A stretch of 64,000 nucleotides of DNA from a bacterium. Lineage in GTDB: Bacteria > UBA10199 > 2-02-FULL-44-16 > JAAZCA01. Both the position numbers and the translations under genes were made by a program. Below the pieces are notes generated by a model. That model ran no database searches. It was not told the DNA's origin and worked only from the letters and a program-made list of their open reading frames with translations. The DNA is taken from assembly GCA_963674695.2 (NCBI GenBank), contig CAXXGI010000003.1:1013064-1077063 (forward strand), written 5' to 3'. Shown here piece by piece: positions 1,129 through 55,365 of the stretch; positions within the stretch are counted from its first letter, which is position 1, and the number at the start of each line of letters is the position of its first letter.

Positions 1129-1375
1129 CCTTACTCCCCATCGATGCACGCGATGATCCGTCATGAGACCAACTCCTTGCAGACGTTATGCGACGATTAC
1201 AGTCCGTCGCTCATGACATACTATCGTCACCGACACAATAAAGTTGCTCTGTTTTTATGAATAATATCACAGTGTTAGGCTAACATGGCGACCGTGACGA
1301 AATGTCACAACGCAATCATCACGGCACGCATTCCCATTGCAAAGTGAACGAGTTGCACATAGAGGACATCCCCTC

Positions 1376-4219
1376 ATGCGACACGATGCCATCGTCATCC
1401 GCGGCGCGCGGATGCATAACCTCAAAGATATCGACGTCACGATCCCGAAGAACAAACTCGTGGTCGTGACGGGGCTGTCCGGCTCGGGCAAATCCTCGCT
1501 CGCCTTCGACACGGTCTATGCGGAGGGACAGCGGCGCTATGTCGAATCGCTCTCGGCGTATGCGCGTCAATTCCTCATGCAGATGGACAAGCCCGACGTC
1601 GACTCGATCGAGGGTTTGAGCCCCGCCATCTCCATCGAGCAGCGAACCGCGAGCCGCAATCCGCGCTCGACGGTCGGCACCTCGACCGAAATTTGGGATT
1701 ACCTGCGCCTGCTCTTCGCACGCGCAGGACAGGTGCACTGCCCGGGCTGTGGACGGCTCATCGCCGGACAGAGCGCGTCACAGATCGTCGATCAGGTCAT
1801 GGGGGATATCCCCGAGGGCAGCCGCATCACCGTGCTGGCCCCGGTCATCTCGGGTCGCAAGGGCGAACACGTCAAGGAATTGAAACGCCTGACGCGCGAG
1901 GGCTTCGTGCGCGCACGTATCGACGGCGCCATCGTCGAACTGGCATCTCCTCCCGCGCTGGACAAGAAGCGCAAACACGACATCGACCTGATCGTCGACC
2001 GTCTCGTCGTCAAACCCAGCGCGCGCCAGCGACTGGCCGACTCAATCGAAACCGCCCTGAAATTCGGGGATGGAATGGTGAAGATCACCACGGGTCACGA
2101 CAACGAGTTGCTCTTCTCGGAGAAAAACGCCTGCGCCTATTGCCACATCAGCATGCCGGAGGTCACCCCGCAGCTCTTCAGCTTCAACTCGCCCAAGGGG
2201 GCCTGCCCCGACTGCGATGGCTTAGGCATGCGGCGCTACTTCGACGCAGACCTGATTATCCCCAATCATCACCTCTCGCTGCGCGAAGGCGCGATCGCGC
2301 CCTGGCAGAAGAAATCACCGACGGCGATGGTGGAGCTCTTTCAGGCGCTGGCCAAACACTATTCCTTCGACATCCGCACGCCATTTGGAGAACTGCCACA
2401 GCGCGCGCGCGAAGTCATCCTGCACGGATCCGGAAGCGAATCGATTCGATTCTCCTATGACAGCGGCGATGAACGGCGCCAGATCTATAAGCAAGCGTTC
2501 GAAGGAGTCATCCCTTTCCTCGAACGACGTCTTCGGGAGACGAGTTCCGATTACATCCGGTGGGATATCGAACGCTACATGAACATGCGTCCCTGCCCCA
2601 CCTGCATGGGCACGCGGCTGAAACCCGAGAGCCTCTGCGTCCTCGTGGGTGGCAAGACCATCGCTGAGATCGCCGCGCTGCCCATCTGCGATTGCGAGCG
2701 ATTCTTCGCAACCCTCAAGATGACCCGAAAGGAACGGGCGATCGCCAAGCGCCTGCTCAAGGAGATCCGCGAACGCCTCTCCTTTCTCGCCAAGGTGGGG
2801 CTCGACTACCTCACGCTCGATCGCGCCAGCGGCACGCTCGCCGGCGGCGAAGACCAACGCATACGGCTGGCCACCCAGATCGGTTCGGCACTCACCGGCG
2901 TGCTCTATGTCCTCGACGAGCCCTCCATCGGGCTGCACCAGCGCGACAACGATCGGCTGCTCGAAACGCTCATGCGCCTGCGCGACCTGGGCAATACGGT
3001 GCTCGTGGTCGAACACGACCGCGACACCATGCTCGCAGCCGACCATATCATCGACCTCGGTCCCGGCGCCGGTATTCACGGAGGCAAGATCGTCGCCTGC
3101 GGCACGCCGGATGAGATCATGGCGGATCCCAACTCCATCACGGGACAGCACCTCTCGGGAAAGCGTTCGATCGAAACGCCGACACATCGCCGCACGCTGG
3201 GAACCGAATGGCTCACCATCGAAGGCGCGACCGAACACAACCTGAAAAACATCGATGTCGCCTTTCCCCTCGGGTGTTTCATCGCCATCACGGGGGTATC
3301 CGGTTCCGGAAAATCGACGCTCGTGAGCGACACGCTGCTGGCCGGACTCAAGCAACGCCTGCTCAAATCGAAGATCCAGGCCGGCGCTATGCGCGACATG
3401 AAGGGGTTCGATCGCATCCGCAAGGTGATCGACATCGATCAGAACCCGATCGGGCGCACGCCGCGCTCGAACCCTGCCACCTATACGGGAATCTTCACGC
3501 CGATTCGCCAGCTCTTCGCCGAGCTTCCTGAATCGCGCGCGCGCGGCTACAAGCCGGGACGGTTCTCCTTCAACGTGAAAGGCGGTCGGTGTGAAGCCTG
3601 CGAAGGCGATGGCATCATCAAGATCGAGATGCACTTTCTGCCCGACGTCTACGTCGAGTGCGAAGTCTGTGAGGGAAAACGCTTCAACCGCGAGACCCTC
3701 GACATTCACTATAAAGGCGCCTCGATCTCCGATGTGCTCCACATGACGATCAATCAGGCACACCGCTTCTTCGAAAACGTCCCCGCCGTTGCCAACAAAC
3801 TCGAGACGCTCATTGAGGTGGGGCTGGGCTATATCGAGTTGGGACAGGCGGCCACCACCCTCTCGGGCGGTGAAGCGCAACGCATCAAGTTGTCACGCGA
3901 GCTCTCCCGCCGCCCGGCGATCCCCGTCGAAGAGGGGGGCAGCGGACGCACGCTCTATATCCTGGATGAACCGACCACGGGCCTGCACTTCGAGGATATT
4001 CAAAAACTGCTCGACGTCCTCGACCGCCTGGTCGACGCGGGCAACACCGTGATCGTCATCGAGCACAACCTCGATGTCATCAAACACGCCGACCACTGCA
4101 TCGACCTCGGTCCCGAGGGGGGCGCGGCCGGCGGCGAAATCGTCGCCATCGGAACGCCCGAGGAGCTGGCCCGGCACAAGACATCCTTCACCGGAAAATA
4201 TCTGAAGGATGTGTTGTAG
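1376..4219 (+). CDS. uvrA: Excinuclease ABC subunit A
   Basis: 947 aa. Two ABC ATPase modules ([41 protein letters not shown] signatures), Zn-finger Cys pairs, and the start [17 protein letters not shown] typical of UvrA. ATG 1376 with AGAGGA upstream is preferred over the TTG at 1337 in the ORF track. Confidence 0.97.
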
Positions 4220-4245
4220 ACTGATCTCCATCCATCATGAGCTGC

Positions 4246-4301
4246 CGCGAGGGGAAACCTTGTACGTCTGGAACAAGCTTCATCTCAGCGTGATGACAAG
4301 G
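4246..4301. repeat. Palindromic element, copy a of the CGTCTGGAACAAGCTTCATCT hairpin family
   Basis: The core CGTCTGGAACAAGCTTCATCT (4265-4285) is identical to the cores in the copies at 16850-16938 and 34276-34353. It is flanked here by the stem CCTTGT/ACAAGG. Confidence 0.7.
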
Positions 4302-16193: not shown

Positions 16194-16820
16194 TCACTCC
16201 GCCTTCACCTCGATCGTTTCGATCACATCGCCCTGGCGAATACTCTCGACGACATCCATCCCTTCGGTCACCTGGCCGAAGACGGTGTAGGCGTTATCGA
16301 GAAACGGGGTCGGCTCGAGCGTGATGTAGAACTGCGAGCCGCTGTTGCGCCGCTCGGGGTTGACCTCGTCGCCCGTGCGTGCCCAGGCCAGCGCTCCCTT
16401 TGGATGCGGACGCTTGATCTCGGCGGGCGTGGTGTAGCCGGGGCCACCGGAGCCGGTCGCGGTGGGGTCGCCCCCCTGAATCACAAACCCCGGGACGACG
16501 CGGTGAAAGCTGAGCCCTTTATAATACCCCCCATCAGCCAGCTGCTTGAAGTTGGTCACCGAGATCGGCGCATCCGTCGCATAGAGCTCGCAGACGACCT
16601 TGCCCTTGTTCGTCGTGATGACCGTCGTATACGTTTTGCCCGCCTCGACTGCGGCCTCCTTCGGCTCCGTAAATGTCTTCGTCTCTTTCTCCGCCATCAC
16701 TGCCTCCTCCTGTTGTTGGACCGTCGCCGCAGGTTTCGCCTCGGGCTCAGCCACTTTTTTCTCGCATCCGATCGCGACCACCATAGTCGACATCATGATC
16801 AGCATTAGCATTGTCTTCAT
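16194..16820 (-). CDS. Cyclophilin-type peptidyl-prolyl cis-trans isomerase, lipoprotein
   Basis: The lipobox is MSTMVVAIGC. Cyclophilin blocks are present: FHRVVPGFVIQGGDP, QFYITL, VFGQVTEGMDVV. Confidence 0.92.
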   Translation of the reverse strand: MKTMLMLIMMSTMVVAIGCEKKVAEPEAKPAATVQQQEEAVMAEKETKTFTEPKEAAVEAGKTYTTVITTNKGKVVCELYATDAPISVTNFKQLADGGYYKGLSFHRVVPGFVIQGGDPTATGSGGPGYTTPAEIKRPHPKGALAWARTGDEVNPERRNSGSQFYITLEPTPFLDNAYTVFGQVTEGMDVVESIRQGDVIETIEVKAE

Positions 16821-16849: not shown

Positions 16850-16938
16850 GAATCTACCGCCGTGAGGGGAAATCATTTGCGTCTGGAACAAGCTTCATCT
16901 GTGAAGATGCAAATGATTTCCCCGGGAGGCGGTAGATT
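16850..16938. repeat. Palindromic element, copy b of the CGTCTGGAACAAGCTTCATCT hairpin family
   Basis: GAATCTACCGCC..GGGGAAATCATTTGC-[GTCTGGAACAAGCTTCATCTGTGAAGAT]-GCAAATGATTTCCCC..GGCGGTAGATTC. It fills the whole spacer between two minus-strand genes. Confidence 0.85.
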
Positions 16939-17883
16939 CTACATGGCACCCACCATCTCCTCGAGTTGAGCCTCCGCGCACTCGCGCGTGGCCCCGAGAT
17001 CATAGCCCCCTTCGAGCACCACGGCCAGGCGACCATCGCAGCACTCGCCCGCGAGTTGCACCAGATCGCGCATCATCAGGCGATAGCCCTTCGTCGTCAC
17101 GCGCATCCCGCCGATGGGATCTTCGACGTGAGAATCGAAACCCGCCGATGAGAGGATGAACTCCGGCTTATACTTCACGACTGAGGGAATGACCTGCTCC
17201 TCGAAGGCACGGCGATACTCCTCATCCCCCGCCCCCCCGCTGAAGGGGATGTTGAGCGTATACCCCTGCCCCTCGCCGAGGCCCACCTCTTCAGCCGCAC
17301 CCGTTCCGGGGAAGAAGGGATGGCGATGGATCGAAGCGAAGAAGACGTCGGGACGACGCTCAAAGGCGTGCTGCGTGCCGTTGCCGTGATGCACATCGAA
17401 GTCGACGATCGCCACGCGGGAGAGCCCCTTCTCGCGAATAAGCCACTCGGCCGCGATGGCGATGTTGTTGAAGAAGCAAAACCCCATGGCGTGATCACGT
17501 TCGGCGTGATGCCCGGGCGGGCGCACGAAGGCGAAGGCGTTCTTCGCCCTCCCCTCCAGGACCTCCTCGGTACAACGAAGCGTTCCGCCGGCGGCGAAGG
17601 CCGCTGCCTCCCAGGTGTGAGCATTGGCGCTGGTATCCGGATCGAGGATCGTGCGTTCGATCCCCGCGGTGGCCGCGATGCGCTCGATATAGCGCTCGTC
17701 GTGAATGAAGGCCAGTTCGTCGCGCGTCGCCTCGCGCGGATCGATCCGTTCGACCTCGCGCCCCACGCCGTCACCATCGAGAACCGTCTGAACGGCCCCG
17801 AGCCGACGCGGCGTCTCCGGATGCATGATGCCCATCTCGTGTCGGGTATAGCGCTCATCCAGAATAACAGCGGTGCGAGTCAT
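16939..17883 (-). CDS. Histone deacetylase-family (AcuC/arginase-deacetylase fold) protein
   Basis: RPPGHHAE, DFDVHHGNGTQ and the GGYD block are typical of class II HDAC / acetoin utilisation deacetylases. Length is 314 aa. Confidence 0.9.
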   Translation of the reverse strand: MTRTAVILDERYTRHEMGIMHPETPRRLGAVQTVLDGDGVGREVERIDPREATRDELAFIHDERYIERIAATAGIERTILDPDTSANAHTWEAAAFAAGGTLRCTEEVLEGRAKNAFAFVRPPGHHAERDHAMGFCFFNNIAIAAEWLIREKGLSRVAIVDFDVHHGNGTQHAFERRPDVFFASIHRHPFFPGTGAAEEVGLGEGQGYTLNIPFSGGAGDEEYRRAFEEQVIPSVVKYKPEFILSSAGFDSHVEDPIGGMRVTTKGYRLMMRDLVQLAGECCDGRLAVVLEGGYDLGATRECAEAQLEEMVGAM

Positions 17884-30013: not shown

Positions 30014-30164
30014 GGCGTGTCCTCATTTGACCATAACCCCTTATAACAAAAGGGGGTCTTTGTTTTTGTCATCCCCGCGCAAGCGGGGATCTCGATTGAC
30101 CCCTCATAAGCGAGATTCCCGCTTTCGCGGGAATGACACCTTACCAAATGAGGACGTGCCCTAG
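30010..30164. repeat. REP/MITE-like element, copy 2, with 20-bp terminal inverted repeats
   Basis: The outer arms are CTAGGGCGTGTCCTCATTTG (30010-30029) and CAAATGAGGACGTGCCCTAG (30145-30164), with 2 mismatches. Inside are the modules TGTCATCCCCGCGCAAGCGGGGATCTCGA and GAGATTCCCGCTTTCGCGGGAATGACA. It fills the spacer between convergent genes. Confidence 0.8.
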
Positions 30165-33283: not shown

Positions 33284-33366
33284 TTCGTGAACCGTAAACC
33301 GTGAACCGTGAACAGTAAGCAAAATCGTGTTAATCTTCACCGTTCACCGTTCACCGTTTTCACCGG
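33284..33366. repeat. Inverted (GTGAACCG)/(CACCGTTC) word blocks in the rnfB-rnfC spacer
   Basis: The sequence is ttcgtgaaccgtaaaccgtgaaccgtgaacagtaa ... cttcaccgttcaccgttcaccgttttcaccgg. The right block encodes the last residues of RnfB (PVKTVNGER). Confidence 0.85.
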
Positions 33367-34167
33367 CCATATTCCCAGCTTCTTTCGCATCGGCCGATAG
33401 TTGATAATGGTTCCGGTCGGGCACTCCTTCACACACTTCCCGCAGGAGGTGCACTTTTCATAGTCGAAGATCGCAATGTTATTCTCGATGCGCACCGCAT
33501 CAAATGGGCAGACCTTCTCGCACTTCTTGCAGCCGATGCACCCGACCGCACAGGCCTTGCGCGTGACCGCGCCCTTATCACGAGAGACGCAGCGCACATG
33601 GACGAGCTTGCCCAGGGGGATCAAGTCGAAGAGTCCCTTCGGGCACGCCTTCACACACTTCCCGCACGCGGTGCACTTGGCCTCATCGACGACCGGAAAC
33701 CCATCGACCATGTGCAAGGCATCGAAGGGACAGACATCCGCGCAATCGCCAAATCCGATACAGCCGTAGGTGCAGAGCTTCGGCCCGCCCTGAAGGAGGT
33801 TCGCGGCAAAGCAGGTGCGCACGCCCTCATAGATATAGCGATCCTCGACATCGCGCCCGTTGCAATGCAGCACGGCAACCTCTTTATCCGTCTGCGCCGC
33901 CTCCACGCCCATCACATCGGCGATGAGGTCTGCCACGCTCTGCCCACCCGGAATGCAGGCGGTCACCTCAGCCGAGCCGTGAACGATCGCCTTCGCGAGC
34001 GCCCCGCATCCGCCCAGACCACACGCGCCGCAGTTCGACCCGGGCAGCGCATGCTCGATGCGAGAGATGCGCGCGTCGATGTGCACGCGAAAGACGCGCG
34101 AAGCGACATAGAGCCCCAACCCAAAGAGGAGCCCCAAAAAACCCAGAATGAGAAGCGGTGGGAACAT
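33337..34167 (-). CDS. rnfB: Rnf complex subunit B (polyferredoxin)
   Basis: ATG 34167 (MFPPLLILGFLG.. TM helix). It has the CGACGLGGCGA cluster followed by several CxxCxxCxxxCP motifs. The ORF-track N-terminus (..SYESRVTSHELRVTSYELRVTSHELRVT..) is a translated repeat array. Confidence 0.92.
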   Translation of the reverse strand: MFPPLLILGFLGLLFGLGLYVASRVFRVHIDARISRIEHALPGSNCGACGLGGCGALAKAIVHGSAEVTACIPGGQSVADLIADVMGVEAAQTDKEVAVLHCNGRDVEDRYIYEGVRTCFAANLLQGGPKLCTYGCIGFGDCADVCPFDALHMVDGFPVVDEAKCTACGKCVKACPKGLFDLIPLGKLVHVRCVSRDKGAVTRKACAVGCIGCKKCEKVCPFDAVRIENNIAIFDYEKCTSCGKCVKECPTGTIINYRPMRKKLGIWPVKTVNGER

Positions 34168-34173
34168 AAAATC

Positions 34174-34261
34174 CGTAACTCGTAACTCGTGACTCGTAAC
34201 TCGTAACTCGTAACTCGTGACTCGTAACTCGTGACTCGTGACTCGTGACTCGTAACTCGTA
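34174..34261. repeat. 11 tandem 8-nt units (CGTAACTC / GTGACTC)
   Basis: 88 nt of alternating gtaactc/gtgactc words lie immediately upstream of the rnfB start. Confidence 0.92.
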
Positions 34262-34275
34262 AAACCGAAGATCGT

Positions 34276-34353
34276 GTCGCCGCGAGGGGGAATCATCTGC
34301 GTCTGGAACAAGCTTCATCTGTGAAGATGCAGATGATTCCCCCGGAAGGCGAC
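34276..34353. repeat. Palindromic element, copy c of the CGTCTGGAACAAGCTTCATCT hairpin family
   Basis: GTCGCC..GGGGGAATCATCTGC-[GTCTGGAACAAGCTTCATCTGTGAAGAT]-GCAGATGATTCCCCC..GGCGAC. The stem differences from copy b are compensated on both arms. Confidence 0.85.
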
Positions 34354-34364
34354 CTGGTCGCTTG

Positions 34365-35015
34365 TCATTCGTGTCCCAGGCCGGCAAAGCCCATGAAGGC
34401 CAGCGCCATGAGCGCCGCACAGATAAAGGCAATCGGTGCTCCCTTGAGCGCCGGCGGAACATCCGTTCGGTCGAGCCGCTCACGGATGCCGCTCATGAGG
34501 AGAATCACCAGCATAAAGCCAGCGCCCCCGCCGAACCCCTGCAACACGGTCTTGGCAAAGCTCTCGCCCGGATCGTGCAGCATGCCGAAATCTTTAATAT
34601 TCAAAAGCGCCACGCCCATCACGGCGCAGTTGGTCGTAATCAGCGGCAAGTAAATCCCAAGCGCATCGTAGAGCGGCGGGACAACCTTCATGAGAAACAT
34701 TTCGACGAGCTGCACGAGCGTCGCAATCACCAGGATGAAGACGACGGTCGTCAGGAACGTATAGTCGTGTGAGGCGACGTCGCCGCCGAACCAACGAAAG
34801 AAGAGGTTCGACTCGGTCGGGGCGAGCAACCAGTGGTTGACCACCCACGTCACGGCGGAAGCCATGGTCATCACGAAGATGACCGCGGCGCCCATACCGA
34901 TCGACTGGCTGATCCGCTTCGAGACACCGATGAACGGGCACAAGCCCAAAAACTTCGCGAGGACGAAGTTATTGACCAGGACGATCGAGATAAAGAGAAG
35001 GATGTAGTCGCTCAT
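34365..35015 (-). CDS. rnfA: Rnf complex subunit A
   Basis: MSDYILLFISIVLVNNFVLAKFLGLCPFIGVSK is almost the canonical RnfA/NqrE N-terminus. It is 216 aa and polytopic. Confidence 0.95.
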   Translation of the reverse strand: MSDYILLFISIVLVNNFVLAKFLGLCPFIGVSKRISQSIGMGAAVIFVMTMASAVTWVVNHWLLAPTESNLFFRWFGGDVASHDYTFLTTVVFILVIATLVQLVEMFLMKVVPPLYDALGIYLPLITTNCAVMGVALLNIKDFGMLHDPGESFAKTVLQGFGGGAGFMLVILLMSGIRERLDRTDVPPALKGAPIAFICAALMALAFMGFAGLGHE

Positions 35016-36953: not shown

Positions 36954-36987
36954 CCGTGACTCGTGACTCGTGACTCGTGACTCGTAA
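36954..36987. repeat. (GTGACTCG)x4 word array upstream of apbE
   Basis: The sequence is ccgtgactcgtgactcgtgactcgtgactcgtaag, starting 16 nt upstream of the apbE ATG. Confidence 0.9.
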
Positions 36988-37102
36988 GAACGTTTTCCCC
37001 GGGAGGCGGCCTTGAAATCGGTGACCCGTAAATCTCTCCTTGATCGATGATTGTCAACACACTATAGGGCGAGCCTCATTCAAACACAACGCGGGAGTAC
37101 AT

Positions 37103-54261: not shown

Positions 54262-54392
54262 ACCTTCCTTCAGGAGGCGCCTCGAGCACATGCGCCGCGA
54301 GGGGACAAACGGAGCTATTTTTACAGGTTCACGTGAAAAATGGTTTCGTTTTTCCCCGGGAGGCGCCCTGGCACTTGCGCCATCAGGGGGAC

Positions 54393-55179: not shown

Positions 55180-55365
55180 GCCAGTCAAGCCAGTCAAGCT
55201 AGTCAAGCTAGTCAAGCTAGTCAAGCTAGACAGGTTAAAACATGCCTGACTGACCTGACTAGCCTGACTGGCTTGATTCGCCTGACTGGCCTGACTGGCC
55301 TGACTGGCTTGTCTCGCCTGACTGGCCTGACCGCCTGACCGCCTGACTGGCCGTGACTGGCCTGC
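55180..55365. repeat. Two opposed 9-nt tandem arrays: (C[CT]AGTCAAG)x5-6 and (GCCTGACTG)x~13
   Basis: The left array is 55180-55231 and the right array is 55244-55365. The units are imperfect reverse complements (AGTCAAG vs CTTGACT/CCTGACT). Together they fill the whole ahcY-etfB spacer. Confidence 0.92.

Follow-up and report, generated by a model that had tools for sequence, protein, structure and literature searches.

What kind of element carries, at three places in one bacterial contig and always on the same strand, an identical 21-nt word? The word, CGTCTGGAACAAGCTTCATCT, is found exactly at 4265-4285, 16880-16900 and 34300-34320 on the + strand of the stretch of DNA analyzed here (64,000 nucleotides, C3:1013064-1077063 of its genome; hereafter the window), where dinucleotide-preserving shuffles give a chance expectation of 0.01 matches. 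The first-pass annotation, in which these three sites and their common strand were correctly noted, took the word for part of the loop of a hairpin with compensatory changes in its stems, and concluded that this was a selected structure, either an RNA or a protein-recognized cruciform, rather than a decaying repeat. Hairpin repeats are common in bacteria, although how they spread or function is mostly unknown. Based on the genome-wide and comparative data presented herein, we propose that the word belongs to a new family of hairpins of an already known interspersed kind, that of the repetitive extragenic palindromic (REP) sequences, the REP doublets forming hairpins (REPINs) and the miniature inverted-repeat transposable elements (MITEs). 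We lean, with modest assurance, toward the view that this non-coding, REPIN- or hairpin-MITE-like DNA hairpin acts, spreads or is retained as single-stranded DNA (ssDNA) in replication, and that it is not a dedicated RNA gene.

A hairpin family with conserved unpaired bases and covarying stems

The genome that holds the window (G000; 3.03 Mb in three contigs, C1 to C3; 58.6% G+C) contains 22 copies of the core of what we term type A, on both assembly strands, when up to 4 mismatches are allowed, and nhmmer together with a covariance model recovered about 25 more copies of a sister subfamily, type B. The original count of three copies therefore holds for the core within the window and not for the family, which totals ~47 copies in two subfamilies once the genome-wide collection and covariance model that had been recommended are in hand. 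All of them (47/47) are intergenic in a genome with a coding share of roughly 85%; it should be noted that both this and the directions of flanking genes given below rest on the calls of a crude codon-usage caller. The type A consensus reads G(Y)CGCC-GCGA-GGGGAAATC-NNN-TG-CGTCTGGAACAAGCTTCATCTGTGAAGATG-CA-NNN-GATTTCCCC-GG(G/A)A-GGCG(R)C. Types A and B have in common the outer stem, the GCGA/GG(G/A)A internal loop and the GGGGAA/TTCCCC base, giving the frame GCC-GCGA-GGGG…CCCC-GGGA-GGC, as well as the loop word AG(C/G)TTCATC, but the inner module of type B is different (…CC(A/T)TTTTT-ACAG(G/C)NTCATCGG-AAAAA(A/T)GG…). The type A loop, which had been called invariant, is nearly so: one position has changed from T to C in 5 of 18 copies and two singleton changes occur.

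The stems vary, and they do so in a coordinated manner. Over the 18 canonical type A copies and their 25 pairs, 98.7% of cells are in standard pairs, compared with 89.0% in shuffles and 32-53% when the partners are slid. Double-sided changes affect 12 of the 25 pairs, 40 cells are compensated and 6 are unpaired, and none of 500 shuffles attains any of five covariation measures, with the proviso that copies within one genome are kin and that the shuffle statistics overstate their independence. Variation is greatest halfway along the inner stem (columns 21-24) and is always compensated there, whether the columns read ATT, ATG, AGG, GGG, AGA or ATC. For type B, taken together with related copies from a second genome (G007, described below), RNAalifold gives 27 pairs, 20 of them changed on both sides, with GCGAG, GG(G/A)AG and the loop invariant or nearly so. 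The excess of compensatory over non-compensatory changes that the first-pass annotation had wanted sought in a larger set is thus present, and its view of the hairpins as structured, conserved in the loop and covarying in the stems, extends to both subfamilies.

There is moderate evidence that pairing is kept specifically on one strand, which we call '+' and define as the element strand in the orientation of the three core copies first noted in the window. On this strand, G·T or T·G accounts for 10 of the variable non-Watson-Crick cells in type A and A·C for 0-1, to which one invariant G·T is added, and the ratio of G·T-type to A·C-type cells in type B is 15:8. The '+' strand is also the more stable one in 18/18 type A and in 15-16 of 21 type B copies, with RNA and DNA parameters alike. 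Mutation pressure from replication on the C-rich strand, where most '+' forms reside (see below), would favor G to A changes and hence A·C cells, which is the opposite of the pattern found.

Selection is not the only source of these compensatory changes. In three copies, one arm is the exact reverse complement of the other such that the asymmetric GCGA/GGGA internal loop is now perfectly paired, the replaced arm being the 3' one in C2:601685 and C1:869823 and the 5' one in C1:280403. In two copies, one of which is that at 16850-16938 in the window, unique flanking sequences have been made into perfect palindromes of 12 and 32 bp. Symmetrized arms are the expected product of template switching in quasipalindromes. 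These copies show that templated copying from arm to arm yields compensation besides selection, and we infer that the copying is by intramolecular template switching. Because such symmetrized copies exist, caution is needed with the usual argument: a conserved loop with compensatory stems is not proof of an RNA, as DNA palindromes compensate in one step. Moreover, compensatory changes are documented in the hairpins of REPINs (PMC3116915), which are interspersed repeats, and the earlier conclusion accordingly stands as far as the structure is concerned and fails in setting a selected structure against a decaying repeat.

Orientation relative to genes and to replication

The family shows no consistent direction with respect to transcription, since the 47 copies divide into 17 that are sense, 17 antisense, 8 divergent and 5 convergent relative to their flanking genes. 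With respect to replication the outcome is very different. We place the origin at ~C2:45 kb, where dnaA (C2:46963-47448) lies exactly at the turn from negative to positive skew, and the terminus region at C3 ~480-640 kb, where the skew is irregular. With dnaA at this switch, the C-rich strand is the nascent lagging strand and thus the leading-strand template, and it is on this strand that 39 of the 47 copies (83%) carry the '+' form (two-sided binomial p = 5.5e-6). Specifically, C1, with negative skew throughout, has 14 + and 2 - copies; the first 480 kb of C3 (positive skew) have 2 + and 9 - and its last 450 kb (negative skew) 9 + and 0 -; and C2 (positive skew) has 4 + and 6 -. That all copies in the window are on the + strand follows from the location of the window within a negative-skew replichore. 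The bias is present at sites of leading-strand genes (16:5) and of lagging-strand genes (12:1), and in each of the sequence contexts in which copies occur: the C-rich-strand share is 12/14 for arrays, 8/8 for heptamer-linked copies, 8/11 for copies in shells and 11/14 for the others. The argument that a common orientation beside genes of either strand favors recognition at the DNA level, independent of transcription, is therefore strengthened, the split being 17:17 by genes and 39/47 by replichore.

Base composition does not explain the bias, given that the '+' strand is G-rich in its own right, with a skew of +0.10. Among ~1,100 other inverted repeats of asymmetric stability, the stabler strand is the G-rich one in 59-65% of intergenic and 67-78% of coding cases, and a REP family found beside a RAYT-like gene (RAYT, REP-associated tyrosine transposase) of this genome has 8/22 copies on the C-rich strand and no bias. 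A general filter by which stable hairpins are purged from the lagging-strand template was considered and rejected, in that the other hairpins in G000 tend the opposite way. A stability filter acting within the family was rejected as well, as the eight copies of exceptional orientation are not those that are least asymmetric between strands. The replichore polarity is family-specific, gene-independent and counter to composition, and its source may be oriented insertion or orientation-dependent retention or function. Orientation bias relative to replication is a known hallmark of ssDNA transposition by the insertion sequences (ISs) of the IS200/IS605 family (PMC3971601, PMC6006769).

Copies in the window, outer contexts and relatives

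The two full type A hairpins in the window are copy b at 16850-16938 (+; 106.5 bits with the covariance model) and copy c at 34275-34356 (+; 107.1 bits). As originally described for 16850-16938 and 34276-34353, they share the full loop and differ in stems and outer arms that are compensated (including GTCGCC/GGCGAC). Their long-hairpin folds have z = -10.6 (copy b) and z = -8.4 (copy c), and the + strand is, as RNA, 9-13 kcal/mol more stable than the - strand. In copy b the outer stem has been lengthened to 12 bp (GAATCTACCGCC/GGCGGTAGATTC), inward of which lie a GTGA/GGGA internal loop, a 19-bp inner stem and a 20-nt loop; its neighbors are a cyclophilin gene (16194-16820, -) and a deacetylase-family gene (16939-17883, -), the stop codon of which adjoins it. 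Copy c is antisense to an operon and flanked by rnfB-like (33337-34167, -) and rnfA/E-like (34365-35015, -) genes. It is linked to heptamers (…AAGATCGTGTCGCC…GGCGACCTGG), with an (ACTCGTR)n array at 34175-34261 (+) as its 5' 'shell', and this array reaches the start codon of the opposite-strand rnfB-like gene, a layout that is the same at 7 other genomic copies.

Copy a, at 4240-4301 (+; 23.8 bits) and 21 nt 3' of uvrA (1337-4219, +), had been described as keeping the loop on an unrelated short stem. The loop is indeed retained, through CATCT and together with the 5' frame GCTGCCGCGAGGGGAAA, but the proposed stem finds no support: CCTTGT/ACAAGG pairs no better than shuffled sequence does (z = -0.36), and the copy is a 3'-truncated type A element with its 3' arm swapped for unrelated sequence. 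Both fragments that had been noted as related prove to be so. The one near 54355 belongs to a complete type B element (54290-54370, +; score against the type A covariance model, 48.6 bits), situated between two ETF-domain genes, with the frame GCGCC-GCGA-GGGG…CCCC-GGGA-GGCGCC and the inner module …CTATTTTTACAGGTTCACGTGAAAAATGG…. What lies near 36995 is a solitary 3' arm, TTTTCCCCGGGAGGCGGC, left at 36993-37010 (+) after deletion of the 5' arm and loop and fused directly to a (GTGACTC)n heptamer array. The window also holds palindromic elements at 30065-30140 and 55183-55300, the two being a nested palindrome (GTCATCCCCGCGCAAGCGGGGATCTCGA…TCGAGATTCCCGC…GGGAATGAC) and an inverted pair of 9-mer arrays, (CCAGTCAAG)n facing (CCTGACTGG)n.

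Throughout the genome at least three outer contexts recur, namely a shell of terminal inverted repeats (TIRs), inverted heptamer arrays and GCGCC-linked tandems, each of them with type A or type B cores. Their upstream sequences are unrelated and contain no conserved promoter. The shell consists of 16-bp TIRs, GGGCACCTCTAAAAAC, with apparent target duplications of 3-4 bp (such as AGTC, ATAA and TTAT, at 7 or more of 15 elements as judged by eye), and is present at 11/47 copies, the hairpin core being shell-free in the remaining 36/47. For the hairpin core alone no target duplication was seen, and an autonomous IS carrying the shell TIR was not found in G000, which has no pair of these TIRs 1-3 kb apart at up to 2 mismatches. 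In the heptamer context, (ACTCGTR)n arrays extend to a divergent gene start. Three loci carry one and the same nested structure, a type A core within the shell with a GC-hairpin insert, from which it follows that the composite moved as a unit. The insert, a small G+C-rich hairpin, is found right after TTCATC/TTCAC in the loop of three type A and two type B copies.

The shell, the heptamers and the small hairpin also occur apart from the family. The MITE-like shell has ~15 complete copies of 100-170 bp (for example, C2:288897-289024 and C3:32615-32742) that enclose at least four unrelated palindromes (type A, type B, GTCATCCCCG… and GTCATCCTGAGCG…), and shell-like remnants flank several hairpin copies. 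Heptamer arrays, which in the window occupy 34175-34261 and 36955-36988, are strongly oriented by replichore too, with the C-rich strand carrying ACTCGTGACTCGT in 65/76 cases, counted as overlapping words and not as independent arrays, and this orientation may follow from where they lie, immediately 5' of leading-strand gene starts. The small double G+C hairpin, GCCCGCCAGAGGCGGGTCCGCCTTTGGCGG, has ~14 copies in G000 and is found within other palindromic elements; its sites include C1:112819, C1:114151 and C1:748672 and, inside hairpin loops, C1:869881, C2:634304 and C3:238344. Its presence at the same loop position in types A and B suggests that hairpin loops are insertion targets.

Among the 22 species genomes of the order, type A-like copies are confined to G009 (4 matches) and type B-like copies to G007 (21 matches), both of which are in the same family as G000 and represent two other genera, and the hairpins were not found in 19/22 genomes. 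The search for the loop in related genomes that had been advised thus retrieves the same unpaired motifs: kept across the three genera are the apical loop A(C/A)AG(C/G)TTCATC(T/G)G and the 4x4 internal loop GCGA/GGGA. In G009 the element is recognizable from the shell TIR GGGCACATCTAAAAAC, the 5' GCGA and the loop TCTGGAGCGAGCCTTATCCGCGAAGA, yet the stem is wholly different and still compensated (CCGGAAAATTCACGTG / CACGTGAATTTTCCG). In G007 there are at least three stem versions, such as GCGAAAAAAAGTGCCTCC and GCCAGAATTTGAGGCCCC, all with GCGA…GGGA and TTTTTACAGNNTCATCGGAAAAA. Many of the G007 copies lie at contig ends or within 100 nt of them (C46, C77, C114, C102, C60, C56, C22, C11 and C106 of that draft assembly), and hairpins probably break short-read assemblies such that the copy number in G007 is underestimated. 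The G007-like form is present as well in the Joint Genome Institute (JGI) contigs Ga0180429/Ga0180430. For the genes that neighbor the G009 copies, the G000 orthologues (52-80% identity) lie at least 7 kb from the nearest type A or type B copy, and the orthologous spacers in G000 hold other palindromes. Mobility of the family is indicated by copies at non-orthologous sites between genera and by the identical nested composites. Beyond the order, searches of JGI metagenome contigs, viral contigs and plasmids gave no match to the type A loop, and type B loop matches in gut metagenomes and viral contigs were dismissed as unrelated coding sequence. An exact 16-mer scan of a genome contig collection, with a pattern too short for the purpose, gave chance matches only, and a search for contigs encoding a flanking protein gave no match.

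Proposed recognition of a folded single strand at the replication fork, its alternatives and its kin

We propose that the form acted upon is the folded '+' strand as exposed at the replication fork. By analogy with ssDNA transposition of the HUH/Y1 type, as in IS200/IS605 and the REP-RAYT systems, the conserved unpaired bases would be the recognition surface for a putative strand-specific DNA-binding or DNA-cleaving protein that meets the hairpin at the fork, and the compensation in the stems would come in part from selection for foldability and in part from one-step arm-to-arm copying through quasipalindrome template switching. The proposal accounts for free stems with conserved loops, for polarity relative to replication and none relative to transcription, for the turnover between genera and for the copying of arms at the DNA level. 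The essence of the argument is that this family separates three signals, that is, conservation of unpaired bases with covarying stems, absence of transcriptional polarity and replication polarity, which together argue that a folded single strand is recognized at the fork with no RAYT gene nearby. Hence, the family provides a tractable test of whether REP-like elements can be maintained by something else than a cognate flanking transposase.

Several observations weigh against the ssDNA proposal. G000 has four Y1/RAYT-like genes, for which the best NCBIfam match is the REP-associated tyrosine transposase at 76.6 and 56.9 bits (cut-off 80), and in a filter-free covariance-model search the 1.5 kb on either side of each of these four, and of each of the two Y1 genes in G009, contained no type A or type B hairpin. 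Y1 genes are present in 20/22 genomes of the order and the hairpins in 3, and co-occurrence of the two is uninformative because Y1 genes are so widespread. A different REP flanks the single-copy RAYT-like gene, and no cognate enzyme emerged from among the six Y1 genes. No target-site motif was found, as the flanks of 14 context-free copies share only remnants of the shell spacer, and no strain-level pair of empty and filled sites was found. Furthermore, the strand selected for pairing lies here on the leading-strand template, whereas that of IS200/IS605 (top) lies on the lagging-strand template, and copies within operons are necessarily transcribed, in one direction or the other, and may have a role at the transcript level. 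Lastly, in G007 the '+' form is on the C-rich strand in 13/18 copies, judged by the skew of 3-20-kb contig pieces, which is the same direction but not significant alone, and in the JGI pieces it is so in 3/9, where the skew of 4-15-kb pieces is too noisy.

The surroundings of the Y1 genes have hairpins of their own, none of them type A or type B, and an association of our family with a REPtron was rejected on these grounds. The single-copy RAYT-like gene (C3:157556-158281) is in a REPtron-like locus with repeats at C3:157366-157496 and C3:158296-158436, where two upstream and two downstream direct 60-nt REP-like units (…AACCACCACGAACGGCCTTCGCAGTGGTCGCC…CCACTTTT) flank it; this unit (…CCACCACGAACGGCCTTCG…) has ~22 copies in G000. 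Three paralogous RAYT-like genes encoding ~245 aa (C1:749672-750421, C3:279685-280422 and C3:474146-474919) are each preceded by a perfect hairpin, GCCGCCATTTGCTGCAGC(T)GCTGCAAATGGCGGC, and followed by a hairpin, GGGGGTGTGC…GCACACCCCC, with TGCTTCGTCTGA words occurring repeatedly, and they look like a multicopy Y1 element that is possibly still mobile.

An explanation that we consider unlikely is that the hairpin is a cis-acting RNA, serving within operons as an mRNA stabilizer, a processing site or an intercistronic attenuator with its loop and internal loop bound by an RNA-binding protein or RNase. Unpaired bases conserved beside covarying stems are the classic RNA signature, wobbles of the G·U type are favored on one strand, and many copies lie a few nt past a stop codon in operons (4-28 nt in 11/17 antisense-class sites), examples being the rnfA/B, ETF and deacetylase-PPIase (peptidyl-prolyl isomerase) junctions. 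In addition, some REPs have been shown to act as stabilizers, processing sites or attenuators of mRNA, and REPs are reported mostly 3' of genes, plausibly acting as RNA (PMC3733652). On the other hand, the wobble-tolerant '+' form is the transcribed sense at only about half of the co-directional sites (17:17), the mRNA bears the '-' form at all three full copies in the window, and orientation by replichore independent of genes is not predicted by a pure RNA function. There is no conserved promoter, and no T-run follows the hairpin on either strand, so that it is not an intrinsic terminator. With Rfam 15 at gathering thresholds the sole match in the window is a tRNA, and at E up to 10 the hairpins match only generic miRNA-precursor-like families, far below threshold. 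A mini open reading frame of the '-' loop, which in type B reads ATG AAC CTG TAA, was also discarded, as G009 does not keep its ATG.

The ssDNA proposal must also be weighed against two explanations that operate on DNA, both of which we consider less likely than it. In one, for which we see quite a low probability, the hairpin is the cargo of a selfish palindromic MITE, moved with its shell by a DDE transposase, where the loop is not recognized, compensation arises by template switching only and the orientation bias reflects survival. The ~15 shell elements with their TIRs, apparent duplications and varied palindromic cores are in keeping with this, as are the nested composites, the symmetrized arms and the extended palindromes. 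So is the placement of the stabler '+' strand, in most copies, off the lagging-strand template, on which, as Trinh and Sinden reportedly found in 1991, hairpins are deleted. However, most copies have no shell and the bias is equally strong outside shells; bases in the loop and internal loop that are conserved across three genera despite full turnover of the stem are not what neutral cargo would show; and a general stability filter is not seen, either in the other hairpins, where the stabler strand is G-rich and lies on the lagging-strand template, or in the exceptions within the family. The other explanation, which we hold to be very improbable, is that of a duplex or cruciform binding site for a chromosome-organizing or replication/segregation factor, read directionally with a logic like that of the FtsK-orienting polar sequences (KOPS) or Chi. 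Strong gene-independent polarity by replichore, counter to composition, and asymmetric sequence blocks conserved across genera are what such a signal would display. Against it are the low number and uneven spread of the sites (~47 per 3 Mb, or one per 64 kb), the lack of the family in 19/22 genomes of the order, which is unlike a core maintenance signal, the non-orthologous sites between genera, and truncated and nested copies that are typical of mobile repeats. KOPS-like and integration host factor (IHF) site readings of the conserved blocks were set aside after they gave no match by eye.

Among known systems, REPs and REPINs offer a close likeness: they too are extragenic, number tens of copies of ~80-100 nt and are often just 3' of genes, and a REPIN likewise is one long hairpin of two conserved inverted end blocks in which compensatory spacer changes are common (PMC3116915). 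A REP is a 20-40-nt imperfect palindrome, one end of which has an unpaired tag, GTAG or CGTC (PMC3733652), but here neither of the end blocks, GCCGCCGCGAGGGGAA / TTCCCCGGGAGGCGGC, is a palindrome in itself and the hairpin foot lacks GTAG/CGTC, CGTC being confined to the upper end of the type A stem and absent from type B. Moreover, the apical loop is the most conserved part here, whereas the spacer is the least conserved in REPINs, and, unlike in REP-RAYT systems, no RAYT gene is flanked by hairpins of the family even though G000 has RAYT-like genes. In the literature searched we found no report of replichore-locked orientation for REPs. IS200/IS605 elements and their non-autonomous derivatives, the palindrome-associated transposable elements (PATEs), resemble the family in having an imperfect hairpin that is read by its structure and not by its stem sequence, and in their replication-related orientation bias (PMC3971601, PMC6006769). 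IS200/IS605 differ from it in having two different subterminal hairpins and inserting 3' of a fixed tetra- or pentanucleotide, with no target duplication, where our family has one symmetric hairpin. Hairpin MITEs (Correia/ERIC-like) and the multicopy intergenic palindromes of Geobacter (PMC2700814) are similarly short and palindromic, with several families per genome, nested and associated with heptamers, and the shell is MITE-like in its TIRs and apparent target duplications, but conservation in our family resides in unpaired nucleotides and not in the termini.

The attC sites of integrons provide the remaining comparison. They act as single strands folded into a hairpin, whose basal and second stems are separated by an unpaired central internal loop; structure is conserved over sequence, and the strand matters relative to replication, all of which is reminiscent of the present family. 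The latter is, however, without the GTTRRRY/RYYYAAC core, is dispersed over three contigs and not arrayed with cassettes beside an integrase, and has a conserved tip on a variable stem where attC has a variable tip. We raise, as a tentative and rather doubtful extension of the ssDNA proposal, the possibility that these hairpins are the cis sites of a new fork-coupled system, in which a putative protein other than the flanked RAYTs would read GCGA/GGGA and AG(C/G)TTCATC in folded '+' DNA, on the leading-strand template or on Okazaki fragments, and either copy the element or use it as an oriented signal; such a system would form a class distinct from REP-RAYT, IS200/IS605 and attC-integrase.

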